Shown: in pieces, positions 827-13,157 of the stretch | Numbering within the stretch: the stretch's first letter is position 1 | Layout: every line of letters starts with the position of its first letter | Origin: Clostridia bacterium | GTDB lineage: Bacteria > Bacillota > Clostridia > Oscillospirales > Acutalibacteraceae | NCBI GenBank assembly: GCA_017543285.1 | Contig: JAFYGK010000012.1 | Span: 1 to 64,000, forward strand | Length of the DNA stretch: 64,000 bases | Reading direction: 5' to 3' | Made by a program: the position numbers and the translations under genes | The notes under the pieces: generated by a model | Databases searched by the model: none | Told to the model about the DNA's origin: nothing | Seen by the model: the letters and a program-made list of their open reading frames with translations, nothing else

Positions 827-2080
827 TTGAAAAAAACAAGATTATTATCGTTGCTGCTGGTTATTGCGCTTTGCTTTGGCGGGTGCTCATCGGCAGTCAG
901 GGACAACCGGTCGGGATCGGCCGGGCATTCGTCTGAGGCCGTTTCATACGCTCCTGCCGCTGACACTCAGCAAAACTCATTGCCCGAGCCGCCGAGCCAG
1001 CCGCAGCTGTCGCCCGAGGAACAGGAAAAACAAAGAATCGATAAAGCGGTCAGAGAGCTTATGTCTTCAATGACGCTTAGGGAAAAGGTCTGTCAGATGT
1101 TTATAGTTGAGCCGGAGCAGCTTGCAGATTCCGGACTCGTGACCGAGGCAGGAGAAAAAATGAAAGAGGCGCTGAGAGAAAATCCGGTAGGCGGAGTGAT
1201 ACTGTTCGCCTCGAACATCAAAAACCCGGAGCAGGTCACAAAGCTGGCGGAGGATCTCCAAGCCTTCTCAAAAACAAAACTGTTCATATCGACCGACGAG
1301 GAAGGCGGAATCGTCGCGCGGGTGGGAAACAACCGCAAAATGGGCACGACAAAGTTTAAGCCCATGGGTAAAACCAAAAGCGCGGACGAGGCCTACAACG
1401 TAGGCTTTACCATAGGCAGCGAGCTTTCGGAGTTCGGCTTCAATCTGGATTTCGCGCCTGTTGCCGACGTAAACTCCAACCCCAAAAACCCCGTAATCGG
1501 CACAAGAGCGTTCAGCCGGGACGCCGAAACCGCCGCTGAATATGTCGCCGCATGCGTAAACGGCTTTTGCGACAGCGGAATGCTATGTACACTGAAGCAT
1601 TTTCCCGGCCACGGCGACACATCAACCGACAGCCATTACGGCGCGGCGAAGACCAAAAAAACCCTCGAGCAGTTAGAGCAGTGCGAGCTATTGCCGTTTG
1701 AAGCGGGAATAGAGGCAGGCGCGGATTTTGTCATGGCGGGGCATATCACGGCCCCGGAGCTGACCGATGAAAAGGTACCCGCGACCCTTTCGCACGATAT
1801 AATAACAGGCATACTGCGCGATAAGATGGGCTTTGACGGTATAGTAATTACCGATTCCATGCAGATGCAGGCCATAACCGATTATTTTTCACCAGGCGAA
1901 GCAGCGGAAGCCGCCGTCAATGCCGGAGCGGATATAATCCTCATGCCGGAGGATCTTGACAAGGCGGTCAACGGTCTGGTTGAAGCGGTGGAAAAGGGCG
2001 ACATCGACGAACAGCGCATAAATGAAAGCGTCGGAAGGATCCTGCGGGTCAAGCTGAAGCAGGGGATCATAGAGCCGTAA
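827..2080 (+). CDS. Glycoside hydrolase family 3 beta-N-acetylhexosaminidase (NagZ-like), lipoprotein with S/P-rich linker
   Basis: Lipobox signal peptide (LLSLLLVIALCFGGCSS), a low-complexity S/P/Q linker, then a GH3 catalytic domain including the KHFPGHGDTSTDSH motif. TTG start with RBS aaggcgg upstream. Confidence 0.8.
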   Translation: MKKTRLLSLLLVIALCFGGCSSAVRDNRSGSAGHSSEAVSYAPAADTQQNSLPEPPSQPQLSPEEQEKQRIDKAVRELMSSMTLREKVCQMFIVEPEQLADSGLVTEAGEKMKEALRENPVGGVILFASNIKNPEQVTKLAEDLQAFSKTKLFISTDEEGGIVARVGNNRKMGTTKFKPMGKTKSADEAYNVGFTIGSELSEFGFNLDFAPVADVNSNPKNPVIGTRAFSRDAETAAEYVAACVNGFCDSGMLCTLKHFPGHGDTSTDSHYGAAKTKKTLEQLEQCELLPFEAGIEAGADFVMAGHITAPELTDEKVPATLSHDIITGILRDKMGFDGIVITDSMQMQAITDYFSPGEAAEAAVNAGADIILMPEDLDKAVNGLVEAVEKGDIDEQRINESVGRILRVKLKQGIIEP

Positions 2081-2092
2081 GAAGGGAGCAGC

Positions 2093-2374
2093 ATGAAATA
2101 TACCTTTGACGCCGTCATACAAAAGGCGCCCGATCAGGACGCGGCATATGTGGTTTTTCCGCACGATATACGCCGCGAATTCGGCAGAGGCAGAATCAAG
2201 GTGCGCGCCGCCTTTGACGGCGAGCCATATTCCGGCAGCATAGTCAACATGGGACTTAAAAACGACGACGGCTCGATCTGCTATATTATCGGCGTGCGCC
2301 GGGACATCCGAAAGAAAATCGCAAAGCAGCCGGGCGACACGGTGCATGTGACAGTAGAAACCGCCGACGCTTAG
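2093..2374 (+). CDS. DUF1905 domain protein
   Basis: 93 aa ORF with the DUF1905-like pattern (VVFPHDIRREFG...GRIKVRAAFDGEPYSGSIV...GDTVHVTVE). Confidence 0.55.
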   Translation: MKYTFDAVIQKAPDQDAAYVVFPHDIRREFGRGRIKVRAAFDGEPYSGSIVNMGLKNDDGSICYIIGVRRDIRKKIAKQPGDTVHVTVETADA

Positions 2375-2442
2375 CGGAGACAATCGCAAGACGCGCGGGA
2401 ATTGCCGCGCGCTTCATATTTCACGCATGAAAGGAGCCTCAT

Positions 2443-2760
2443 ATGCCCTCGACAAAAGCATATCTCGAATATGTCCTCGATCAGCTGTCCGGTTCGGACG
2501 GTGTGACATACAGACCTATGATGGGCGAATACATCATCTATTACCGCGGCAAGGTGATCGGCGGCGTTTATGACGACCGTTTTCTTGTAAAGCCGACAAA
2601 ATCCGCGGAGGAAATGATGCCGTCGGCTCATTATGAATTGCCATACGACGGTGCAAAGCCGATGCTGCTCGTTGAAGAGGTGGACGACAGACAGCTTCTA
2701 AAAGAGCTTATCGAAAAAGTATATGACGGGCTGCCCGAGCCGAGAAAGAAAAAGAAATAA
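2443..2760 (+). CDS. TfoX N-terminal domain family protein
   Basis: 105 aa. Resembles the TfoX/Sxy N-domain (AYLEYVLDQL...GEYIIYYRGKVIGGVYDDRFLVKPT). Confidence 0.55.
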   Translation: MPSTKAYLEYVLDQLSGSDGVTYRPMMGEYIIYYRGKVIGGVYDDRFLVKPTKSAEEMMPSAHYELPYDGAKPMLLVEEVDDRQLLKELIEKVYDGLPEPRKKKK

Positions 2761-2801
2761 CGATAAATGATTAATAAATACTGAATATCAATAAATAATA
2801 G

Positions 2802-2830
2802 TTGACAAACAGCAGATAGGGGTTTATAAT
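2802..2830 (+). promoter_or_regulatory. Sigma-A type promoter (TTGACA-N17-TATAAT) for the lipoprotein gene
   Basis: Perfect TTGACA at 2802-2807, a 17 nt spacer, and TATAAT at 2825-2830. Confidence 0.55.
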
Positions 2831-2901
2831 AATCACAACAGTAAAGGGCTTTGCACCTTCTATTGCGGTATATCTCATGTAATATTCAAGGAGAGATGAA
2901 A

Positions 2902-3348
2902 ATGAAAAAGCTCATATCCGTTCTGCTGCCGGTTTTTTTGATTATGTGCCTTATATCAGGCTGCGGCTATAATTACCGCGAGAGCTTCAAGCGCTTTGAC
3001 GTTGCGGTGACCCTTGATACGCCCGATGACATCTACGCCGTGACCTGCGATTATTCCCTTGACGGCAAATCGTTGGGCTTACAGGGCGCGTCAAATGCCG
3101 ACGAAACGAAGATTACCGACGGGGTTTATTTCGAATTTGACGAAAAAAATTTTGAAGATAACCCAGAGCTTGGCGAGCTTTCGCTGTCATTCGGCCTGTA
3201 CGACCGCCTGCGCCAGAGTCTGGACGAGGAGGAGCGCGTAATACCGGTCGACGGAGAAATAAAGATCGAAGCGCAGTACGGCAGGGAATATCGCGTCACG
3301 ATAAGCGGCGACAAGCAAAGCGGCTTTCGGGCGGTTCTCGCCGGATAG
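2902..3348 (+). CDS. Hypothetical lipoprotein
   Basis: Start chosen at the ATG 7 nt downstream of RBS aaggagag. Signal peptide with lipobox (LIMCLISGCGY). No recognisable domain. Confidence 0.5.
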   Translation: MKKLISVLLPVFLIMCLISGCGYNYRESFKRFDVAVTLDTPDDIYAVTCDYSLDGKSLGLQGASNADETKITDGVYFEFDEKNFEDNPELGELSLSFGLYDRLRQSLDEEERVIPVDGEIKIEAQYGREYRVTISGDKQSGFRAVLAG

Positions 3349-3727
3349 CGGCCCGAAAATCCCGGTCACCGTTTAAGGATTCTTTGCGCAAACGATCCTT
3401 GAGCGCGCTTTTCACCCGGCGGGATCTTTCCCGGAGCCGTCACATCGGGGCTTGCCGTATTTGTCTGCAGTGGTATCACGGCGGCACACAGCGCTGAAAA
3501 ACCCTTCATGTCTGCCGCGACGCTTATTCATATCAGCGCGCCGCACCACGACTATATCTCATCCGCTTTATATACGGCCGGCCTGAACCCTCATTGAAGC
3601 CGGCGCCTGTCTTCGCCGCGATCTTTCCGGGGATATTTCATCGTCCGGATATGTGTATATCCCGCATCAGACCGGGCGTAAAGAAGCTCAACGGCAAAAT
3701 GCAGGCGAGCTGACTCAAAAAGGTATT

Positions 3728-3764
3728 ATCCCCGCGCTACGCAAAACCGGCGCGGGGATTTTTG
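3728..3764 (+). terminator. Rho-independent terminator-like hairpin (atccccgcgc...gcgcggggat + TTTT)
   Basis: A 10 bp GC-rich stem followed by a T-run. It has no upstream ORF on the + strand and lies in a 560 bp ORF-free region. Confidence 0.4.
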
Positions 3765-3808
3765 CCGATATACCGGCTGATCAAGCGGAAGAATAAAGGC
3801 GCCTATCA

Positions 3809-3839
3809 AAAAAACAGCAGACGAAAGTCTGCTGTTTTT
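3809..3839. terminator. Bidirectional Rho-independent terminator (A-run / stem gtctgctgtt / T-run)
   Basis: aaaaacagcagac-gaaa-gtctgctgttttt. It sits immediately downstream of the minus-strand PASTA gene stop at 3909. Confidence 0.55.
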
Positions 3840-3908
3840 AAATACAAGCATAAACCGCTCAGGCGGTTTTAATATGTGCATGCCGCAAAAGGAGCTTTCC
3901 CCGGCCTT

Positions 3909-5693
3909 CTATTCTTCGGCAGTCGGGCTTGTTTCCGGCGGAGTTTCAGAGGAAGGTTCGGGCTGCTGCGATGACGGAGGCTGCTGCGACGATGACGACG
4001 GCTGCTGAGAGGAGGAAACCGGCTTTTCATATGTGCTGACTGTCAGCGTAACATGTGTGCCGTATTCATATTCTCTGCCAGCGGTCAGATCCGAACCAAT
4101 GACCTCGCCGTAATTGCCCTGCGCGGCGTCTTCCTCGATAACAACGACAAAGCCGAGCTGCGACAGGGTCGCTGCCGCCTGATAGGCCTTTTTGCCGACC
4201 ACCTTGGGCATCTCTCTCATCCTGGGTCCGAGCGAGACCTTGATATGCACCGTTTCGCCCTCCTCGATGAGAGTGCCCGGCGAGGGAGTCGTCTCAACGA
4301 CCCTGCCCTCGTCAAAGGTATCGCTGAAAACATATCCGTCAAATACAAACCGCATGTATGCCCATTGCATATTGTCGGTCAGGTCGCTGTAATTGACGCC
4401 CATAATATCATACGGAACGGCAAAATTGAATTCGGGGGCGCTTTCGGATGAGGACTCCGGCTCGCTTGACAATTCCGACGACATTTCAATGGAGACCGGC
4501 TCGACCGACGACGGATTTTCTCTTGAGCGCCCGCCGAGGACGACTGCAAGCACAGCTATTGCGATGAGCAGCAGCAGACCGAGAACCCCGCAGGCTATAT
4601 ACAGACCGATATTGCTTTTTCTTCCGACCGGCGATTCATCGTAGTAGTCCTGTTCCTCCTCGACCATTCTTCTGCGCGCCGATTCTCTGTCCAATTGGGC
4701 CTGTTCCTTTTCATATTCCTTGACGACGCCGTTCACCGCCGTAGAGGAAGTAAGCTCCTGCTTGAACACATCCACCGAGTTTGTTCTCATTTCGGGGTGT
4801 ACCTTTAAAGCTTTGTTGAGCGCCGAGAGAACGTTCGGAGGAAGCTGGGAGCTGACCTCAAGCGGGAAATTTAAGGTCTCGTTGTTCATGCGCTGCAAAA
4901 CGTCCGGCAGGACGGTTCCCGTCAGCGCGGTATATATAGTCGAAGCAAGGCCGTATACGTCGGTATGATGTCCGAGCCTTCCGTCCGAGCGGTATTGTTC
5001 AAGCGCGGAATAACCGTCGAATATCTGCGGATTGAGGTATGTTCCCGAGCTGTTGGCGGCCTCAATGGAAAAGTTGGTCAGGCGGAGCTTGCCAGAAGCG
5101 TCGAGTATGAGATTGTCGGGATTTACCGCATAGTGGTTTATCCCGGCGGCGTGAAGCGCGGCGAGTCCGTTGATCACCGGTACGAACAGAGTGCGCACCT
5201 GCTTCCATTCGAGCGGTCTGGAATGGCGCTCGAGAGCCTCGGAGAGGGTGCAGCCGTCGACAAGCTCGCCGACACAGTAGACGGTGCCGTTTGTCTCAAA
5301 TATATCGTAAATGGGAACAAGCATGGGAATATCGCGCAGCTTTGCGAGCATTCTTGCCATGCCGATAAAATCCTTGTAGTATTCGTAAAAGGCTGTTTCG
5401 CATCCGTTGATTATTCTCAGGCTGTTGTCGCCGGTATTTCTTGCGGAAATATTTACGGGGAAAAACTCTCTGATCTGCACGGGAGCGTTCATCTTGTTGT
5501 CCCAGCCGGAATAAGAGGCGCCGTCGCCGTTCGCGAGCAGCAGGCAGCCGACGGTATATCTTTCCTGGATACCGGTGCCTACAGGCAAAAAAGGCTCGGG
5601 ATTCTGCTGCGGGGTATATCCGCAGTGGGGGCACTGGGAAAAGCCTTCGTCAGGCTTCATGCATCTCGCGCATAAATTGTTAGGTATAGACAT
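3909..5693 (-). CDS. Ser/Thr kinase-like pseudokinase with N-terminal zinc ribbon, one TM helix and two extracellular PASTA domains
   Basis: N-terminal CxxC...CxxC. The kinase fold is recognisable but the catalytic residues are replaced (VAIK becomes VQIR, HRDLKPxN becomes HYAVNPDN, DFG becomes NFS). A TM helix (LYIACGVLGLLLLIAIAVLAVVL) follows, then two PASTA-like repeats and a Q/P/S-rich tail. Confidence 0.65.
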   Translation of the reverse strand: MSIPNNLCARCMKPDEGFSQCPHCGYTPQQNPEPFLPVGTGIQERYTVGCLLLANGDGASYSGWDNKMNAPVQIREFFPVNISARNTGDNSLRIINGCETAFYEYYKDFIGMARMLAKLRDIPMLVPIYDIFETNGTVYCVGELVDGCTLSEALERHSRPLEWKQVRTLFVPVINGLAALHAAGINHYAVNPDNLILDASGKLRLTNFSIEAANSSGTYLNPQIFDGYSALEQYRSDGRLGHHTDVYGLASTIYTALTGTVLPDVLQRMNNETLNFPLEVSSQLPPNVLSALNKALKVHPEMRTNSVDVFKQELTSSTAVNGVVKEYEKEQAQLDRESARRRMVEEEQDYYDESPVGRKSNIGLYIACGVLGLLLLIAIAVLAVVLGGRSRENPSSVEPVSIEMSSELSSEPESSSESAPEFNFAVPYDIMGVNYSDLTDNMQWAYMRFVFDGYVFSDTFDEGRVVETTPSPGTLIEEGETVHIKVSLGPRMREMPKVVGKKAYQAAATLSQLGFVVVIEEDAAQGNYGEVIGSDLTAGREYEYGTHVTLTVSTYEKPVSSSQQPSSSSQQPPSSQQPEPSSETPPETSPTAEE

Positions 5694-5964
5694 TTATATC
5701 TGCCTCCGTTTAGCTTTCGGATCGGATTTATACTTATCTGCCGCAGAGAAAAAAGCGGGCGGCAAATCTGCATTTTTACATAAATACCCACGATATAATA
5801 ATCCTTTATATATTTTAACAGACTTTCAGTCAAAAAGCAATACATATTTACCGACGGGTAAATCAATGCGGTATACGTCCGATTGACAACCGGCATTTTG
5901 CGTGATAAAATCAAATCGGGTCGTTTTTCGACCCGGACATTTTTACCGAAAGGAAGCTCGCCGC

Positions 5965-6609
5965 GTGAAAAAACTGCTTTGTGTTCTGCTTGCCGCCGCC
6001 GTTGCGCTGTCGCTTCTTTGCTGCGGCAGATACGATAATTCATCCGACCAGAATATTTATGTGCCCGACCAGGGAACTTCAAACGAATTAAAGCTCATCG
6101 AGGATTCATCCGCGCCCGACCGGTCGGAAAAACCGTCCTCCCCGAGCGGCAGGGCGGAAAAAGGCAGCAGCCAAAGCCCGCAGAAAAGTGAAGGCGGCAG
6201 CCCGGATTCCGAACCGCAGAGCAGCAATGCCTCGTCCGAACCGCAGGGCGGCAGGAAGACGCTCGATAAAAACGGAACATATACAAGCCGCGACGATGTA
6301 GCGCTGTATATCCGCCTTTACAACACTCTTCCCGAAAACTTTATCACCAAAAGGGAGGCCGAAGCGCTCGGCTGGACCGGCGGCAGTCTCGAGCCTTATG
6401 CCCCGGGAAAATGTATAGGAGGCGGACGCTTCGGCAACTATGAGGGAGCGCTGCCCGATAAAAAAGGGCGCAAATACTGGGAGTGCGACATTGACACGCT
6501 GGGCAGGAAAAGCCGCGGAGCAAAGCGCATAGTTTATTCCAATGACGGGCTTATCTATTATACCGGAGACCATTACAAAACCTTTACGCTGCTGTACGGG
6601 GAGGAATAG
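5965..6609 (+). CDS. Secreted barnase-family guanyl-specific ribonuclease, lipoprotein with S/P-rich linker
   Basis: The C-terminal ~110 aa align with barnase (LPENFITKREAEALGW; APGKCIGGGRFGNYEGALP; RIVYSNDGLIYYTGDHYKTF). The catalytic Glu, Arg and His are conserved. GTG start 8 nt after RBS aaaggaag, followed by a lipobox (ALSLLCCG). Confidence 0.75.
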   Translation: MKKLLCVLLAAAVALSLLCCGRYDNSSDQNIYVPDQGTSNELKLIEDSSAPDRSEKPSSPSGRAEKGSSQSPQKSEGGSPDSEPQSSNASSEPQGGRKTLDKNGTYTSRDDVALYIRLYNTLPENFITKREAEALGWTGGSLEPYAPGKCIGGGRFGNYEGALPDKKGRKYWECDIDTLGRKSRGAKRIVYSNDGLIYYTGDHYKTFTLLYGEE

Positions 6610-6612
6610 AAA

Positions 6613-6891
6613 ATGAAAAAGGTTGTGCTCGACGGAGCCGTTCTGACAAATATGGAGGATGTTCATGAGTTTCTCGCACGCGAATTGTTTTTTCCCGAGT
6701 GGTACGGCAAAAATCTCGACGCCCTTCATGACTGCCTGACCGACATACATGAGGACGTCAGGATTGTTTTCATAAAGAAAAAGCAAATGAAGCAGAGGCT
6801 GGGCGGATATTATCCCAGGCTGGTCAGGGTTTTCAGGGACAGCAGCGAGGAAAACCCGCATATAAAATTCAGCCGCAGAAACGAAATGTGA
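6613..6891 (+). CDS. Barstar-family ribonuclease inhibitor
   Basis: 92 aa ORF 3 nt downstream of the RNase gene. It matches barstar over the binding helix (FPEWYGKNLDALHDCLTD), including the equivalents of Asp35 and Asp39. Confidence 0.8.
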   Translation: MKKVVLDGAVLTNMEDVHEFLARELFFPEWYGKNLDALHDCLTDIHEDVRIVFIKKKQMKQRLGGYYPRLVRVFRDSSEENPHIKFSRRNEM

Positions 6892-7505
6892 GAAGCGCCA
6901 TGGATACAGAAGTAAAAAGCAGCGAAAAAAAGCCGCTTAAAATTGCGGCTGTCGTTATAATGCTTGCCCTTGCCCTTGCCCTCGCGCTTTTTATCAGCAC
7001 GCCCGAGATGAGGCTCAAGCTCTACCGCGGGACGAGGATAACCGGCGTATCGGATATAAGGATAAACGGAGTGAAGTATTCTCCGGTTGAAAAGTATTCG
7101 GCTTTCGGCAACGGGCAGACCGAGGAAGAGAAACAGCCGCTCGTCCTAAAAAAGAACGTGTTCAGGCTGGAAGGCGGCAGACAGGGCGAATATGCCATTG
7201 AGTATTTCTTTGACAATGCGGAGATAGCCCGGCTGACGGGCGACGACAGCTTTAATGATTTTCCGCAGTATACTCCGGTGCGGTTTGTTTATTACAGCGA
7301 CAACTGGTGGAATGTCGTCAAGCTGTCTCTGGACGCCGATCTGAACGGCGAAGACGGAAACTGGTGGATCACGCTGAAAGCCAAATGCCGGAGCCAGGAG
7401 AGCGACGGAGCCAGGAGCTTTTCAAAGCAGGCAAACTATATTTCCGCGGCGGAAAACGGCGAGGGGATAACCCTTTTGTGCGGCGGGCAGCAAACGGAAC
7501 AATAA
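6888..7505 (+). CDS. Hypothetical membrane-anchored protein, translationally coupled to barstar
   Basis: The start overlaps the barstar stop. There is an N-terminal TM helix (IAAVVIMLALALALALFI). No known domain. An alternative start is the ATG at 6900. Confidence 0.45.
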   Translation: MRSAMDTEVKSSEKKPLKIAAVVIMLALALALALFISTPEMRLKLYRGTRITGVSDIRINGVKYSPVEKYSAFGNGQTEEEKQPLVLKKNVFRLEGGRQGEYAIEYFFDNAEIARLTGDDSFNDFPQYTPVRFVYYSDNWWNVVKLSLDADLNGEDGNWWITLKAKCRSQESDGARSFSKQANYISAAENGEGITLLCGGQQTEQ

Positions 7506-7540
7506 CCGATTTATCCAAGCAAAGGCAAAAAACCATACAA

Positions 7541-7574
7541 AAAGGCGACTGAAGCATTTTCAGCCGCCTTTAAA
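7541..7574 (+). terminator. Rho-independent terminator after the barnase-barstar operon
   Basis: A ggcgactgaa/ttcagccgcc stem with one mismatch, followed by TTTAAATT. Confidence 0.4.
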
Positions 7575-7742: not shown

Positions 7743-8261
7743 TTATGCCCAGGGATCGAGTTCTGCGGGCAGGCGAATATCGGGCAGCAGGAAGTTTTCC
7801 CACAAGAACCATTGGTTTCCCTTTCGGCGCAGCTTGACCTGGCGCTCGGTATCGGCTCCCGACGAGCGGATATACAGTGTCGCATAGCCCTCGTTCTGAT
7901 AGGAGTAGGGATTGTCGAATACCGTCACGGTATAAGGCAGCGAAGGCTCATAATTATTCTGCGGACCGGTTCCGGCGAAATAGGAGCGGGCCACATACAT
8001 TTTTCCTCTCAGCCTGTCCCTGATGAACTGCTGCTCAAACGGGGACAACGGCTGCGGACCCTTGAGGAAGTTGAGCATATTGAATGTTTCCTGCGGATCG
8101 TTTTCGTAATTGCAAAGCACCGCGACGGTCAGAGCCGCCGTCATAAAGGGGGTTGAAAGCGAGGCCTCGGGTACGGATCTCAGCTCGTCAACGGTTTTGG
8201 GCAGTGAGGAAAAAGAAAAAGTATATGTGTTTGGCATTTTTTCTCCTTTGCAGGCAGACAT
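7743..8261 (-). CDS. Hypothetical cytoplasmic protein, last gene of the zinc-ribbon operon
   Basis: 172 aa ORF whose start overlaps the stop of the upstream gene by 1 nt. No recognisable domain. Confidence 0.4.
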   Translation of the reverse strand: MSACKGEKMPNTYTFSFSSLPKTVDELRSVPEASLSTPFMTAALTVAVLCNYENDPQETFNMLNFLKGPQPLSPFEQQFIRDRLRGKMYVARSYFAGTGPQNNYEPSLPYTVTVFDNPYSYQNEGYATLYIRSSGADTERQVKLRRKGNQWFLWENFLLPDIRLPAELDPWA

Positions 8262-8827
8262 TACCGTCCGGGGCCGTTTGGTCTCGGCGGCTGCATGTTT
8301 TGGGGAAGCATCATCCTGTCGACGCTTTTGTTCATGAATGCGTCTGCCTTTTCAATAAGGTTCAGACTTCCGTGTACGGAATATTTTTCCGCGGTGGTCT
8401 GCGCGTGTACGGTTTTCATTTTGGACGACATGACCGACGTCGCAATCAGAGCGACAAGAAGCCCTATGCCGAGAGAAATCACGATGGCGAGAGCAAAATT
8501 GAAGGGGCGTTTTTCCGTTTTTGCATTCAGATCGTAAATCTGACCGTAATCAAAGATTTCGGCATTGATGTCGTCGGTTTCGCCGGCATCGTTTTCGTCA
8601 AAATAAAGCTCATAAATCTGGTTGTAGTCATATCCGTCCGCGTTGTAGTCCTCGCCGATGATCTGATCAAGCTGATCTTCGCTTATCGAGCCGTCCTCTC
8701 CGATTTGGGAGAGCATTTCCATAAGCTGCTCATAGCTGATCTCTTTGTTTCCCTCCTGAGCCGACACGGCAAAAGCGAGCGACAGGCACAGGCAGAGCGC
8801 CAGAAGGACGCAAATCAGTTTTTTCAT
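8261..8827 (-). CDS. Secreted acidic (D/E/Y-rich) protein with C-terminal TM anchor
   Basis: Signal peptide (LLALCLCLSLAFAVSA), an acidic low-complexity ectodomain, a TM helix (FALAIVISLGIGLLVALIA), and a short cytoplasmic tail. Confidence 0.45.
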   Translation of the reverse strand: MKKLICVLLALCLCLSLAFAVSAQEGNKEISYEQLMEMLSQIGEDGSISEDQLDQIIGEDYNADGYDYNQIYELYFDENDAGETDDINAEIFDYGQIYDLNAKTEKRPFNFALAIVISLGIGLLVALIATSVMSSKMKTVHAQTTAEKYSVHGSLNLIEKADAFMNKSVDRMMLPQNMQPPRPNGPGR

Positions 8828-8842
8828 ATTGCCCGCACCTCC

Positions 8843-9922
8843 TTAAAGCAGCCAGAACAGATAGGACAGAGCAAAAACGGCAGCGCCGACGATTGAGGCT
8901 AGACCGAGGAACCATTTCCAGTAGGCTCCCTTGTCGGTCGGCAGATCGCCTACGAATTTTCCTGTCTGGCCGTTCATGGCGAAGGTATATTTCTGTCCGT
9001 TCCATGTTGTGTTCAGCAGCCACACCGGATAGAGGGCATAGCTTGCTCTGGCGTTGTTTAGAGAGATCATGCTCTGCTGTGGCATAACGGCGTTATAGCC
9101 CTGCACAGTCTGGGCAAAGACCTGCTCGGTGGTGCGCTTTATTCTTTCATTGGCGCGCTCGATGCTTTGTTCGGCCGTCACGTCATATTTGTCGGCGAGA
9201 TAGCCTGCCAGATATGCCGTTTGAAAATCGACCGCCTCACTGAAATTATACGGCTCGAGCGATTCCATAAGGGTATCGTCCATTTTTGAAGAGCCGTCCA
9301 CCGGCACGCGCTCAAATCCGAGGGTTCCCCCTCTGATTATATCGTAGAAGTTTGTTTCGGTATAGCTGAATTTACCGTCTGTCCATGTGCGGATCTTAGT
9401 TCCTTTGTAGAACATTCGGGCGTTGGCCTCGGCGGTAAACAGCCAGAACGGGACATATATGCCCTTTATTTCGTCGATGTGGTTTTGATCCCTGAATATT
9501 TTGGGCAGAAGACGTTTGCCTTGCATGTGCTGCATGAGGCCCTTTTTTGCGGCTTCCTTGTCCAGCTTGAAGGGGATTATATAATCGGGCTTCAGCGTGC
9601 CGGAAAACTGCCCCATCATAACGATTGGATTGCCGCAGTAAGGGCATGACGTTGCCGCGAGGCTCTGGTCGCCTATTATTTCGCCGCCGCACGATTTGCA
9701 GACATAGACCCTCATGCCCTCGGTTTCACCCTCCTGCCATTCGGCGCCGGAGGTGTCCCACTGCATATTGTCGCCCTGGGGGGCATCGAGAGCCTCGTCG
9801 AGCTTTTCCAGCTCGCTCATTTCATACTGCGACTCGCAGAAGGGGCATTTCATCTTCTGCAGCCCGCTGTCGAATTCCAGAGCGCCGCCGCAGCTCGGGC
9901 ATTTGTATTCCTGCAATGCCAT
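8843..9922 (-). CDS. Double zinc-ribbon protein with C-terminal TM helix
   Basis: Two CPxCG...CPxC(E/G) ribbon pairs near the N-terminus, a ~200 aa unknown domain, and a C-terminal TM helix (WFLGLASIVGAAVFALSYLFWLL). Confidence 0.6.
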   Translation of the reverse strand: MALQEYKCPSCGGALEFDSGLQKMKCPFCESQYEMSELEKLDEALDAPQGDNMQWDTSGAEWQEGETEGMRVYVCKSCGGEIIGDQSLAATSCPYCGNPIVMMGQFSGTLKPDYIIPFKLDKEAAKKGLMQHMQGKRLLPKIFRDQNHIDEIKGIYVPFWLFTAEANARMFYKGTKIRTWTDGKFSYTETNFYDIIRGGTLGFERVPVDGSSKMDDTLMESLEPYNFSEAVDFQTAYLAGYLADKYDVTAEQSIERANERIKRTTEQVFAQTVQGYNAVMPQQSMISLNNARASYALYPVWLLNTTWNGQKYTFAMNGQTGKFVGDLPTDKGAYWKWFLGLASIVGAAVFALSYLFWLL

Positions 9923-10013
9923 TGTTTTTTATCAGCTCCTTTTCTTGGAGGGGATGGTGGGCTTAAGGAAAAAGGTCGGGCTTGAAGCCGTCGAGCCGCC
10001 GAAGGCGGCTTTT

Positions 10014-11150
10014 TCAGCTTCTCGGTGTTCCGCAGCTCTGGCAGAACTTTGTGTTGTTCACGGCGCCGCAGCTCGGACAGGTCCACGGACCGTCCTGCTG
10101 GACGGGAGAGGTAAACTGCTGCTGACCGGGAGTCTGCTGATACTGCTGCTGAAACCCCTGAGGCTGATTGAATCCGCCGCCCTGATTGAAGCCCTGTTGG
10201 GGATAGCCCTGGTTAAAGCCCTGCTGCTGACCGGGGGCTTGCTGATACTGCTGCTGAAACCCCTGAGGCTGATTGAATCCGCCGCCCTGATTGAAGCCCT
10301 GTTGGGGATAGCCCTGGTTAAAGCCCTGCTGCTGACCGGGGGCTTGCTGATACTGCTGCTGGAAGCCCTGCTGAGGGTAGCCCTGATTCATGTTCACAGG
10401 CTGGCCGTAATTTTGCTGGAAGCCCTGTTGGGGATAGCCCTGATTCATGTTTACAGGCTGAGAGAAGCCCATTGCGCCCTGCTGAAAGCCGGGCTGATTA
10501 AAACCGGGCTGCTGAAAGCCGGGCTGATAGCCGAAGCTCTGTTGTACGCCGCAGGCGCCGGGCATAAGAGCGGCCCTGATGGTCTCGCCCTGTCTTTGCA
10601 GTTCTGAATAGAGAAAGTCGTACTGGCTCTTCGGACGGTTGGAAAAGCTGCTCAGCTCAAACTTTATTTCATTGAACCACGGCGAATTTACATAGATCAC
10701 CGTTTCAAACTCGTAGCTGTATTCATAACGTCTGGGATTGAAGCTGGTATTTTTGCCGTCGGGAGATTTGTAGAATATCTCGGTTTTATGTTCCTCTATC
10801 CTGGTCTCGCATCCTGTGACCTGAGAAATATCAATGATATCGGGGTTCTTTTTGCGCCAGTCGGATGAGGAAGACACGATGAATTTCCCCTGCTGCTGGT
10901 CGATATAAACCTTCGTAGAATTGCCGAGGGTCATGGTCGGATGAAAAGAATTAAGGTTTTGCTCGTTTTGTTCTCTGTAGGCCAGCTGCTGTTTAATCTC
11001 CTCAAGCGTAGACCTTTTTCTGTCGCTGAAAAAAGGCGACAGCTTGCCTGCACAGTTTTTGCAGATATTGCCGTCCTCCAGCTTGCGGTTGCCGAGAAGT
11101 CCGATTTTTTCTCCGCATATATCGCAGAATTTTTTCTCAAATAAAGCCAT
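10014..11150 (-). CDS. DUF4428-like zinc-ribbon protein with Q/G/F/N-rich prion-like repeat domain and C-terminal zinc ribbon
   Basis: N-terminal CDICGEK...CKNC, a ~150 aa Q/N/G/F/Y low-complexity region made of tandem repeats, and a C-terminal WTCPSCGAVNNTKFCQSCG. Confidence 0.6.
   Translation of the reverse strand: MALFEKKFCDICGEKIGLLGNRKLEDGNICKNCAGKLSPFFSDRKRSTLEEIKQQLAYREQNEQNLNSFHPTMTLGNSTKVYIDQQQGKFIVSSSSDWRKKNPDIIDISQVTGCETRIEEHKTEIFYKSPDGKNTSFNPRRYEYSYEFETVIYVNSPWFNEIKFELSSFSNRPKSQYDFLYSELQRQGETIRAALMPGACGVQQSFGYQPGFQQPGFNQPGFQQGAMGFSQPVNMNQGYPQQGFQQNYGQPVNMNQGYPQQGFQQQYQQAPGQQQGFNQGYPQQGFNQGGGFNQPQGFQQQYQQAPGQQQGFNQGYPQQGFNQGGGFNQPQGFQQQYQQTPGQQQFTSPVQQDGPWTCPSCGAVNNTKFCQSCGTPRS
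10145..10470. repeat. In-frame tandem repeats (102 nt x2 plus partial, and a further ~42 nt x2) encoding the Q/G/F/N-rich domain
   Basis: The 34 aa unit QQYQQAPGQQQGFNQGYPQQGFNQGGGFNQPQGF occurs twice exactly at the nucleotide level. QPVNMNQGYPQQGFQQ also occurs twice. Confidence 0.6.
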
Positions 11151-11241
11151 GGTTTTTCTCCTTTGATCGGGGTCTGCATTTTAAAAAGCCTTATGCCGCA
11201 ATCGGCCGGCATTAAAATGCCGGCCGAAAGCTGATTGCCTG

Positions 11242-12591
11242 TTATTTCCGAATATCGTTGTCGTCGAATATATCGCCGCACTCGGGGCAGAATTTGGGAG
11301 GATTCTTGGGGTCTGCGGGCTCCCATCCGCATTTGTCGCACTTATAGAGAGGCGCTCCTGCGGGTTTCGGAGATCCGCACTCGGGGCAGAATTTGCCCTT
11401 GTTGACGGCGCCGCACTTTGTGCATGTCCAGCCTGCCGGGTCTGCCGGCTTGGGCGATCCGCAGTCGGGGCAGAATTTGCCTGTTGCCGTCGCGCCGCAC
11501 TTTGCGCATGTCCAGCCGTTTGCTGCCGGAGCCGCCGGAGCCGCCGGAGCCGTCTGCTGCTGCGCCGCCTGCTGAGCCTGCTGCTGCTGACCGATCGCGA
11601 ACAGATTCTGAGTGTTCATTCCGCCTGCGTTCATAGCCATACCCATACCCATGAAGCCGGCCATCGCGCCGCCTGTGTTGGAAGCCGCGGCGCCCATTGC
11701 GTCGGCCTGAGCTCCGGCGATTGTTGCAGCCGCCATTGTCGGATCTTTGAGCATTGCCGCGCGCTGTGCCTTCTTGATAAGCTCGGCGTCCTCCTCGGGC
11801 AGCGTGACCGAGCCGAGAGCGACCGATACGACCTTCAGGCCTCTTGTCTCTCCCCATTTCTGGGAAAGAGCTTCATTCATGGCGTTTTCAAGGTCGGTAT
11901 TGTGGGAAACTATCTGATTGGGACGCAGCTCAAGATCGGACAGCTTGCCGAATGCCGGCTGCAGAGCGCTGATAAATTCCGTCTTGAGCTGGCCGTCGAG
12001 GGTTTCTCTGCGGTATTCCTCGGTGACGTTGCCGCATACGTTTGTGTAGAAAAGAAGCGGATCGGCTATCCTGTAGGAATAGACGCCGGAGCAGCGAATG
12101 GATACGTCTATGTCAAGACCTATCTTGGAGTCGACGACTCTGAAGGGAACGGGATTTGCCGTGCCGAATTTGTTGTCAAGCAGCTCCTTGGTGTTGAAAT
12201 AGTAAACGCGCTGGTCCTTTCCGGTGTCGCCGCCGTATGTAAAGCGCTTGCCGATGAGCTTGAAGGTCTCCTTGATGCTTTGACCGAGATTGCCTGTGAA
12301 GATACTGGGCTCGGTCGAGCTGTTCCAGGTAAACTGTCCGGGCTCGGCACAGACCTCGACGATCTTGCCCTGCTCGACGATGATCATGCACTGACCGTCG
12401 GCAACGGCGATGCCGGAACCGTTGGAGATGATGTTGTCGTTGCCCTTTGTGTTGGAGGAACGACCGGTGATCTGCTTTTTGCCCCTGACCATCATTACGT
12501 CGTTGGGGATTGCTTCGCAATAGAAAAATTCCTTCCACTGGTCGGCGAGAACACCGCCGACGGCGCCTAAGCCGGCTTTAATAAGTCCCAT
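11242..12591 (-). CDS. SPFH/band-7 domain protein with three C-terminal zinc ribbons (COG4260-like)
   Basis: SPFH-like N-terminal domain, an A/Q/M-rich linker, then WTCAKCG...CPDCG, WTCTKCG...CPECG and CDKCG...CPECG. Start at the ATG 8 nt downstream of RBS aaaggag. Confidence 0.65.
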   Translation of the reverse strand: MGLIKAGLGAVGGVLADQWKEFFYCEAIPNDVMMVRGKKQITGRSSNTKGNDNIISNGSGIAVADGQCMIIVEQGKIVEVCAEPGQFTWNSSTEPSIFTGNLGQSIKETFKLIGKRFTYGGDTGKDQRVYYFNTKELLDNKFGTANPVPFRVVDSKIGLDIDVSIRCSGVYSYRIADPLLFYTNVCGNVTEEYRRETLDGQLKTEFISALQPAFGKLSDLELRPNQIVSHNTDLENAMNEALSQKWGETRGLKVVSVALGSVTLPEEDAELIKKAQRAAMLKDPTMAAATIAGAQADAMGAAASNTGGAMAGFMGMGMAMNAGGMNTQNLFAIGQQQQAQQAAQQQTAPAAPAAPAANGWTCAKCGATATGKFCPDCGSPKPADPAGWTCTKCGAVNKGKFCPECGSPKPAGAPLYKCDKCGWEPADPKNPPKFCPECGDIFDDNDIRK

Positions 12592-12659
12592 AAAATTTTC
12601 TCCTTTCAAGGGAATGATTTTGTTTTGGAAATATATTTTACAGAGCTGTTCCTCTGTTT

Positions 12660-12941
12660 TTAACTGTCTTTATCATCCTTCGGAGCCTTGTAGGAATAAG
12701 GGTTTTTGTTTGGCCTTTCCGGATCGACGGAGTAATAGCTCATGCCGTAATTCAGGATAAGAGTCACGATTATTATCATTACCGCCCAAAGCGAGATCGC
12801 CCCGACAAACCACCATATGCTGATTTTGAGCCAGAAATGCAGAATCAGCAAAAGAGCGGGAACCGTAAGCCACTGCCAGTTGATGAACATATTGAGCAGC
12901 ACTCCGGTTAAAAAGCCGACGGTTCTTTTTGGGGTTTTCAT
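12660..12941 (-). CDS. Small hypothetical membrane protein (2 TM)
   Basis: 93 aa with two hydrophobic helices. It lies 50 nt upstream of the SPFH gene on the same strand. Confidence 0.4.
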   Translation of the reverse strand: MKTPKRTVGFLTGVLLNMFINWQWLTVPALLLILHFWLKISIWWFVGAISLWAVMIIIVTLILNYGMSYYSVDPERPNKNPYSYKAPKDDKDS

Positions 12942-13157
12942 ATCAGTCTCCGGTTAGATTTTATCTATTTATCATTATATATTAATTAAATAAAAAAATC
13001 ACTACCCCTGAATAAAAATTTTACAATTTTTTCGGATTTTTTCAATTATTATCTCAAAAAAACAGGAGCAATCTGCAATCGCGTCAAAACACATCGCATA
13101 TCTTTCACCGTGATCGGAACAATCTCCCTCTCCGGGCAAATAAACCCGGCCGAAATA

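Follow-up and report, generated by a model that had tools for sequence, protein, structure and literature searches.

Organization of the locus

Positions 7743-12941 of contig JAFYGK010000012.1, which belongs to a Clostridia bacterium of the family Acutalibacteraceae, hold six co-directional open reading frames (ORFs) on the minus strand, which we number g1 to g6 in the order of transcription; by "the window" we mean the whole stretch of 64 kb that was analyzed. All six ORFs lie where a first-pass annotation of the sequence had placed them, and the domain descriptions given there were upheld by Pfam searches, counts of CxxC motifs, hydrophobic segments and a search for tandem repeats. The statement that nearly all of the encoded proteins carry zinc ribbons was, however, too strong, as ribbons are present in only three of the six (g2, g3 and g4). 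The genes are listed here in transcription order.

12660..12941, minus strand: g1, small hydrophobic membrane protein of 93 amino acids (aa) with two predicted transmembrane (TM) helices; occasional accessory
11242..12591, minus strand: g2, YdjI-type soluble SPFH protein of 449 aa, with a Band_7_1 domain, an A/Q/G/M-rich linker (about residues 283-357) and three C-terminal ribbons
10014..11150, minus strand: g3, accessory protein of 378 aa, with a DUF4428 ribbon (1-55), a helix, a predicted PH-like beta-sandwich (about 70-195), a low-complexity region (about 199-352) and a single C-terminal ribbon of type ZnR-A
8843..9922, minus strand: g4, YdjG homologue of 359 aa: paired zinc ribbons at the N terminus, a central domain that is conserved, and a TM anchor at the C terminus
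8261..8827, minus strand: g5, YdjH-type membrane anchor of 188 aa: signal peptide, ectodomain of about 80 aa rich in D/E/Y/I, TM segment (107-137) and conserved cytoplasmic tail
7743..8237, minus strand: g6, cytoplasmic DUF6935 protein of 164 aa with a predicted NTF2-like fold; recurrent accessory, usually right after the YdjH gene

The context of the ribosome-binding site and the gene calls on near-identical metagenome contigs place the start of g2 at ATG 12591 (449 aa), not at TTG 12609, and that of g6 at ATG 8237 (164 aa), in the context AAAGGAGAAAAA-ATG. Three of the spacer lengths given in the first-pass annotation (91, 91 and 15 nt) are correct, whereas g1 and g2 are separated by 68 nt instead of 50, and g5 and g6 lie 23 nt apart instead of overlapping by 1 nt. 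Upstream, the operon borders on a divergent gene for a flavodiiron protein, which starts at 13110(+), and downstream on a convergent gene at 6888-7505(+). Three further elements were identified in or next to the gene array.

13018..13045, minus strand: sigma-70-like promoter candidate, TTGAAA-16-TAAAAT, upstream of g1 in the AT-rich region between the divergent genes (10/12 in a consensus scan; consensus match only)
11202..11227, minus strand: GC-rich 11-bp hairpin in the g2-g3 spacer, without an adjacent U-tract (RNA folding)
7536..7571, minus strand: intrinsic terminator after g6, with a 13-bp stem and a U-tract, common to the convergent gene 6888-7505(+)

The terminator after g6 folds at -29.7 kcal/mol (z = -5.45), and none of 200 shuffled sequences was as stable. 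Because the divergent and convergent neighbours, the promoter-like site and the hairpin with its U-tract bound the unit, it is plausible that g1 to g6 are transcribed together. Both 91-nt spacers hold GC-rich hairpins without U-tracts; the one between g2 and g3 folds at -29.5 kcal/mol (z = -2.81), with a match of the terminator-like scan close by, and its hairpin is possibly an attenuator or an mRNA-stabilizing element. We also considered whether the equal length of these two spacers is the duplicated scar of an insertion of g3, but their alignment was unconvincing and their hairpins differ, and we take the equal length to be a coincidence.

Relationship of g4, g2 and g5 to YdjG, YdjI and YdjH

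A Band_7_1 protein encoded beside a double-ribbon, TM-anchored protein resembled the operon pspA-ydjG-ydjH-ydjI of Bacillus subtilis, which forms part of the sigma-W regulated Psp network (PMC8581546, PMC11237479, PMC9239133), and the locus was therefore tested against that operon. As a reference we used a metagenome contig (L012), which was retrieved with a wobble-degenerate version of the published ydjG primer (PMC8581546). This contig encodes PspA, YdjG, YdjH and YdjI, the protein termini of which agree with the published primers, and its Pfam content consists of PspA_IM30, Zn_Ribbon_TF, TPM and Band_7_1 plus a zinc ribbon, the Band_7_1 domain of YdjI being matched at E = 8.3e-43. L012 is a genuine Bacillus-type pspA-ydjGHI operon.

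Protein g4 aligns with the YdjG of L012 over its full length (residues 6-359), with 34% identity and an E-value of 3e-76. It has four CxxC motifs, Pfam recognizes zinc ribbons in it, and a hydrophobic TM segment occupies residues 337-359, so that the ribbons, the central domain, the C-terminal TM helix and the full-length homology of a YdjG-type protein are all present. The central domain of YdjG has been described as NTF2-like (PMC11237479). The two top database matches to g4, P0001 (531 aa, E = 1e-246) and P0002 (485 aa, E = 1e-216), exceed the norm of 359-361 aa and may be miscalled starts or fusions with the upstream gene.

Protein g2 is collinear with the YdjI of L012 (E = 4e-11) in its SPFH domain, low-complexity linker and C-terminal ribbon. 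Pfam detects Band_7_1 (PF13421, E = 2.6e-18) and DZR, and no hydrophobic segment was found; a TM-less Band_7_1 domain, a low-complexity linker and a C-terminal ribbon are the traits of a YdjI-type protein. The six CxxC motifs of g2 form three ribbons, two of type ZnR-A (W-x-C-x-x-C-G-x-x-N-x-G-K-F-C-x-x-C-G) and one of type ZnR-B (C-D-K-C-G-W...P-K-F-C-P-x-C-G-D), and both ZnR-A ribbons were generated by an 84-bp tandem duplication at 11358-11517 (1.9 copies, 85% matches). The Band_7_1 protein encoded beside YdjG in another locus, L001, is 79% identical to g2. In this orthologue the first cysteine pair of both ZnR-A copies is lost (CA-CG and CS-CG), and the number of functional ribbons in g2-type proteins therefore varies among species. 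Searches of solved structures found no relatives of g2, and for the YdjG profile generic ribbon matches only.

The assignment of g5 as a YdjH-type protein is transitive, since its route runs through Clostridial TPM homologues and the family profile. On the one hand, g5 matches the TPM proteins that adjoin YdjG in L001 and L004 (E = 2e-18 and 8e-19, respectively) through the half that comprises the juxtamembrane, TM and cytoplasmic-tail regions; on the other hand, the TPM protein of L001 matches Bacillus YdjH over its full length (E = 2e-18). On the family profile, the alignment of g5 extends over positions 2-30 and 116-241 of 264, and the TPM core of about 85 residues (about 31-115) is absent and replaced by a short segment rich in D/E/Y/I. 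Its hydrophobic segments lie at residues 1-26 and 107-137. In L096, a gene of only 68 aa in the YdjH position encodes the TM segment and tail alone (E = 1e-10). YdjH-type proteins thus come in a series of sizes, from about 260 aa with a TPM domain, through the 188 aa of g5, to the 68-aa form, and they share the tail motif M-K-x-K-L-K-S-V-R-x-Q-x-x-A-x-x-Y...S-R-D-x-F-L-Y. This series is reductive and shows the TM segment and tail to be the conserved core. The form present in the window is rare. At the 50% cluster level g5 is a singleton, and the alignment of its relatives with it is confined to the tail; a length of 245-290 aa prevails among them, and of the top 150 about one fifth fall below 200 aa. 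Comparison with the family profile revealed one other clear case of a TPM-less YdjH (L077) and at most three candidates elsewhere.

The first-pass annotation had presented the six genes as an undescribed system none of whose components has an assigned function. This view does not hold for g2, g4 and g5, which are homologues of YdjI, YdjG and YdjH of B. subtilis. The domain architectures of these three proteins have been described in comparative genomics of the PSP response (PMC11237479), and experiments have shown that they bring PspA to the membrane (PMC8581546). The formation of membrane foci by YdjI and by PspA depends on YdjG and YdjH in B. subtilis, where YdjI, PspA and YdjG are all interaction partners of YdjH (PMC8581546).

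Conservation of the gene neighbourhood and absence of pspA

The YdjG family comprises more than 8000 clusters at 90% identity, none of which is named. At least 597 species-level genomes contain a match to it, and among the matches listed all belong to Clostridia-type gut or rumen lineages. Synteny was surveyed in the 80 best species loci of these at least 597. A YdjH gene follows immediately after YdjG in 79 of them. Of the 58 loci with sufficient flanking sequence, 53 have a Band_7_1 gene on the same strand upstream, directly adjoining in 41. The window has the same adjacent and co-directional arrangement, in the order g2-(g3)-g4-g5. Because it recurs across species, this arrangement is far beyond chance. 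Instead of being scattered and unlinked, the homologues in the 80 loci keep a strongly conserved synteny, which bears out the earlier proposal of a linked, membrane-associated module of the stress or envelope type as opposed to a set of unrelated hypothetical genes.

A tblastn search and an iterated hidden Markov model (HMM) search started from Bacillus PspA gave no PspA homologue, either in the 64-kb window or, within 10 kb, in any of the 80 Clostridial loci. The same searches recovered both Bacillus control loci, and we therefore discarded the idea of a pspA gene hidden nearby. The window thus lacks the same-operon pspA (PF04012) of the Bacillus arrangement. The main texts of two papers on PSP phylogenomics mention neither Clostridia nor pspA-free ydjGHI contexts.

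Two loci contain a minimal cluster (L096, 6674-8495, and L097, 4173-5994), consisting of a YdjG-like gene (361 aa), a 68-aa YdjH remnant and a DUF6935 gene, with no Band_7_1 gene upstream. From this cluster it seems that an SPFH protein is not needed for YdjG, the YdjH tail and DUF6935 to form a unit. A HisKA_7TM-GerE regulator was considered as a constant partner of the module, but it occurs near only about five clusters (L004, L027, L034, L074 and L098) and not in the window.

The accessory genes g3, g6 and g1

The DUF4428 domain (PF14471) of g3 occupies residues 9-54 (E = 5.8e-18; 64.9 bits against a cutoff of 27.8), whereas the C-terminal DZR match stays below the Pfam threshold (E = 3.1e-4; 21.3 against 27.3 bits). 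The protein has two plus two CxxC motifs and no hydrophobic segment, and its middle domain is predicted to adopt a PH-like fold. The low-complexity region, which is rich in Q/G/F/P/N (36% Q and 19% G), includes two exact repeats of 35 aa that correspond to the following feature.

10116-10370, minus strand: 105-bp (35-aa) tandem repeat in g3, 2.4 copies with 96% matches (TRF)

The number of repeats varies: g3 has 378 aa in the window and in L007 and L009, and 343 aa in L006 (8878-9909), which is one unit short, possibly through collapse of the repeat during assembly. In the g3 family, the total length (201-347 aa) is driven by the low-complexity region. In the sister strains L007 (8779-9966) and L009 (1780-2430), g3 was missed by the gene callers, and spurious ORFs of 67 and 216 aa were called on the opposite strand across its Q/G-rich repeat, a pitfall to be reckoned with when this family is annotated. 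The apparent disruption of g3 in these strains is an annotation artefact of the low-complexity repeat, as the DNA is 100% and 99.8% identical to that of the window, respectively.

Many members of the g3 family carry at their C terminus the same two-ribbon module as g2 (47% identity, E = 2e-18), of which the g3 of the window retains ZnR-A only. Judging from these alignments, g2 and the g3 family may have a docking tag in common, namely the ribbon module that terminates a disordered tether. DUF4428 genes are present in 11 of the 80 loci, as one or two genes between Band_7_1 and YdjG, and about six of these loci have the middle domain of the g3 type. When the interval between Band_7_1 and YdjG is filled, it holds DUF4428. 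Two loci that were found in a search for g3 homologues have the orders Band_7_1 - DUF4428 - ... - YdjG-like - DUF6935 (L098) and Band_7_1 - DUF4428 - 133 aa - TM2 - 233 aa - 168 aa - YdjG - TPM - DUF6935 (L099). Up to four small genes (133 aa, TM2-domain protein of 215 aa, 233 aa and 168 aa) can lie between DUF4428 and YdjG (L099, 8954-11362; L019, 5272-8649). The 133-aa family follows DUF4428 in about seven loci, and none of these extra small genes is present in the window.

Protein g6 is a member of DUF6935 (PF22043), which it matches over profile positions 2-158 of 158 (E = 2.2e-55; 187.4 bits against a cutoff of 27). It has no hydrophobic segment, and its fold is predicted to be NTF2-like. 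We considered whether g6 is a detached copy of the central domain of YdjG, but the hhalign probability was 0.3%. We found no literature on DUF6935. Genes of this family occur in 16 of the 80 loci, mostly directly after YdjH, and they co-occur with DUF4428 (9 loci with both, 2 with DUF4428 only, 7 with DUF6935 only and 62 with neither; Fisher p = 2e-6, without correction for phylogeny). A search based on DUF6935 found it linked to YdjG in L096 and L097, and alone in contigs labelled as Treponema and Bacteroidales. Proteins 63-64% identical to g6 are encoded without ydj-type neighbours in L093 (8001-8495), L094 (8001-8489) and L095 (5321-5809). These stand-alone copies could reflect horizontal transfer, mis-binning or an independent role of the family.

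The 93-aa g1 protein, whose hydrophobic segments lie within residues 24-72, matched no Pfam, NCBIfam or PHROG family. Homologues of g1 are located directly upstream of the Band_7_1 gene in 6 of the 80 loci.

Comparison with known systems

The locus shares with the B. subtilis operon the relationship of g2, g4 and g5 to the YdjI, YdjG and YdjH families, respectively, and the co-directional, tightly spaced arrangement of the genes. The two differ, however, in several respects. The window lacks pspA, both in the operon and within 10 kb, and its gene order is I-G-H instead of (pspA)-G-H-I. Its YdjH homologue has a short acidic segment in place of the TPM core, and its SPFH protein has three ribbons instead of one double ribbon. 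In addition, it contains g3 between I and G, g6 at the end and g1 at the start, and its promoter candidate is sigma-70-like and not sigma-W-like, as far as a consensus match can tell.

A closer likeness is found in the common Clostridial trio Band_7_1 - YdjG-like - TPM_phosphatase (L001, L004, L013-L092), which has the same families in the same order, likewise lacks pspA, and shares 60-79% identity with g2 and g4. In most of these loci, on the other hand, the TPM protein (about 260 aa) is intact and YdjG follows Band_7_1 without an intervening gene, whereas the window represents a rarer extended form, with DUF4428, DUF6935 and g1, that is combined with the rare TPM-less YdjH.

Other SPFH systems, such as FloA/FloT, HflK/C and stomatin-NfeD, also combine an SPFH/Band-7 domain with a function beside the membrane. 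However, g2 belongs to PF13421 and has no TM segment or hairpin, no flotillin domain, and no NfeD or protease gene as a partner. It would rely instead on separate anchors, as has been shown for YdjI. A parallel for g3 is provided by TM-less homologues of the membrane nuclease SNIPE, in which DUF4428 or PH-like N-terminal modules stand in place of the TM anchor (bioRxiv 10.1101/2025.11.03.685801); by analogy, this suggests a membrane- or partner-targeting role for such modules. Unlike those homologues, g3 is devoid of a nuclease domain, is encoded within a ydj-type operon, and joins both modules, DUF4428 and PH-like, to a disordered repeat and to a ribbon at the C terminus.

Flanking genes

Between the operon and a kinase gene lies a region (5902-6891, plus strand) that encodes a secreted barnase-type ribonuclease (PF00545), followed directly by a barstar inhibitor (PF01337). 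The kinase gene (3909-5693, minus strand), 2 kb from the operon, encodes a 594-aa Ser/Thr kinase with a TM segment, a C-terminal PASTA domain and an N-terminal CxxC...CxxC ribbon, MSIPNNLCARCMKPDEGFSQCPHCGY. It is an envelope-sensing kinase, and Pkinase and PASTA are annotated on the identical gene in L008.

Interpretation and alternative explanations

Homology, domain architecture, synteny, predicted folds and the lack of a nearby pspA are what we observed here. On this basis we consider it probable that the locus is a Clostridial form of the Firmicute YdjI-YdjG-YdjH module, without pspA, without the TPM core and rich in accessory genes. Several points weigh against this interpretation. The identity between g2 and YdjI is only about 21%, a direct BLAST comparison of g5 with Bacillus YdjH was not significant, and the Pfam TPM domain, the hallmark of YdjH, is not matched in g5. 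Recruitment of PspA, the sole output that has been established experimentally in B. subtilis, has no local gene here. Furthermore, the link of DUF6935 to the module is facultative, since the family is also found away from it, and the GC-rich hairpins in the two 91-nt spacers could split the unit into sub-transcripts.

Alternatively, the genes could serve anti-phage defence or abortive infection, with the SPFH protein and its ribbon and PH-like adaptors sensing either the perturbation of the membrane by a phage or the injected nucleic acid. Phage SPP1 switches on the pspA-ydjGHI operon of B. subtilis, and a CBASS cyclase has PspA as a target of conjugation (PMC11153139). In some SNIPE homologues the place of the TM anchor is taken by DUF4428 and PH domains (bioRxiv 10.1101/2025.11.03.685801). 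Residues 1-122 of g3 (10785-11150), which comprise DUF4428 and the start of the PH-like domain, match phrog_888, a phage family of unknown function (E = 5e-13), so relatives of this N-terminal module are carried by phages. In L098, a CBASS operon (1668-5854; SMODS/DncV-like cyclase, E2-CBASS and S_4TM effector) lies directly upstream of the Band_7_1-DUF4428 cluster, but this adjacency was seen only once; a divergent HisKA_7TM-GerE regulator is also located directly upstream of that cluster. None of the six proteins matched a PADLOC-DB 2.0 model below E = 0.001 (the best was PDC-S64, E = 0.0039, in the ribbon region of g4), and they contain no nuclease, protease, NTPase or toxin domains. The flanks are of a housekeeping nature (NrdR, the flavodiiron protein and the PASTA kinase), and a trio that is 60-79% identical and fixed in order in at least 597 species does not resemble patchy defence islands with their fast turnover. 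The defence module that the first-pass annotation had offered as one option is thus without direct support, and we regard it as quite improbable. Another alternative is that membrane remodelling occurs independently of PspA, with g3 replacing PspA as the membrane-binding effector that is recruited through its ribbon tag and concentrated through its Q/G-rich region. Such a role would be in line with the failure to find pspA in or within 10 kb of the Clostridial loci, with the fact that, in a subset of species, g3-type genes occupy the very interval between the SPFH gene and YdjG, with the predicted PH-like fold, and with the ribbon module and the long low-complexity tethers that g3 has in common with g2. 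Yet g3 does not qualify as an effector of pspA-less trios in general, because DUF4428 is present in only about 11 of the 80 loci and the g3 type in about six. Moreover, the g3 of the window keeps just one of the two shared ribbons, lipid binding by its PH-like domain is unsupported, and PspA may be encoded elsewhere in the genome. We therefore find this explanation unlikely.

The remaining alternatives concern the SPFH domain and the ribbons themselves. SPFH proteins generally scaffold proteases and channels, and g2 might form a cage that regulates a membrane protease or channel, in a quality-control system of the HflK/C-FtsH or stomatin-NfeD type. This seems very improbable, as protease, NfeD and channel genes are absent from the operon and from its conserved neighbourhood, and g2, which has neither TM segment nor hairpin, has a Band_7_1 domain like that of YdjI and not of the HflK/C type. 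A weak FtsH_ext-like match of g5 (E = 4.6e-4) would fit such a system, but it is under the Pfam cutoff and falls on the signal peptide and acidic region. As for the repeated ribbons, the first-pass annotation had read them as a sign of shared recruitment either to a common partner or to nucleic acid. The former has a partial basis in the C-terminal ribbon module that g2 shares with the DUF4428 family. The latter, in which zinc ribbons that bind nucleic acid couple a membrane signal to transcription or translation, could draw on weak, sub-threshold matches of the g4 ribbons to TFIIB, RNA polymerase subunit P and RNA-binding ribbon families, and on the remark by Popp et al. that the YdjG ribbon type "is known to bind DNA" (PMC9239133). 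These matches, however, are under the curated cutoffs and reflect the generic CxxC...CxxC shape; helix-turn-helix and sigma/anti-sigma domains are absent; the B. subtilis proteins act as membrane anchors and adaptors (PMC8581546); and the ribbons of g2 and g3 end disordered tethers, as is typical of protein-docking modules. Nucleic-acid binding is therefore unsupported, and a coupling of this kind is hardly likely at all.

Proposed function and implications

If the locus is indeed a variant of the YdjI-YdjG-YdjH module, its mode of action may be sketched by analogy with B. subtilis, from which all protein-protein interactions and the role in stress are carried over by homology. The tail-anchored g4, with its cytoplasmic ribbons and central domain, and g5, with its TM segment and cytoplasmic tail, would form a platform at the membrane. 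This platform would recruit the soluble SPFH protein g2, which may then oligomerize into membrane-proximal assemblies that stabilize or mend membrane under stress, whether on its own or through recruitment of a PspA whose gene lies elsewhere in the genome. Because the g3 family shares the C-terminal ribbon module of the SPFH protein, we propose that g3 is a second client or adaptor that docks on the same platform. The NTF2-like g6 and the small membrane protein g1 would be optional accessory subunits.

A more speculative extension, to which we give little credence as yet, is that gut and rumen Clostridia possess a PspA-free YdjI/G/H platform whose clients, the SPFH protein and the DUF4428/PH-like proteins, share the C-terminal double ribbon as an address tag. 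A disordered tether rich in Q/N/G and ending in this tag would dock the clients to the YdjG and YdjH anchors, the PH-like protein, and possibly DUF6935, would supply the membrane-binding or sensing role of PspA, and variation in the number of tether repeats would tune the assembly.

The genes described here do not constitute a new kind of system; what is new are the accessories g3, g6 and g1 and the pspA-less form. They provide the first structural and contextual handles on DUF4428 with a predicted PH-like domain and on DUF6935 with a predicted NTF2-like fold, and tie both families to the platform. They also point to two candidate docking elements: one is the ribbon module that g2 has in common with the g3 family, the other the conserved YdjH tail in the cytoplasm. 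In practice, the gain would mainly lie in the annotation of thousands of "hypothetical" microbiome genes and in a testable model. The YdjI/G/H module has previously been studied in B. subtilis only, and only as an anchor for PspA. The trio is very widespread and highly conserved in gut and rumen Clostridia, without pspA within 10 kb in the 80 loci surveyed; either PspA is supplied in trans, or the SPFH platform has a role that does not depend on PspA.

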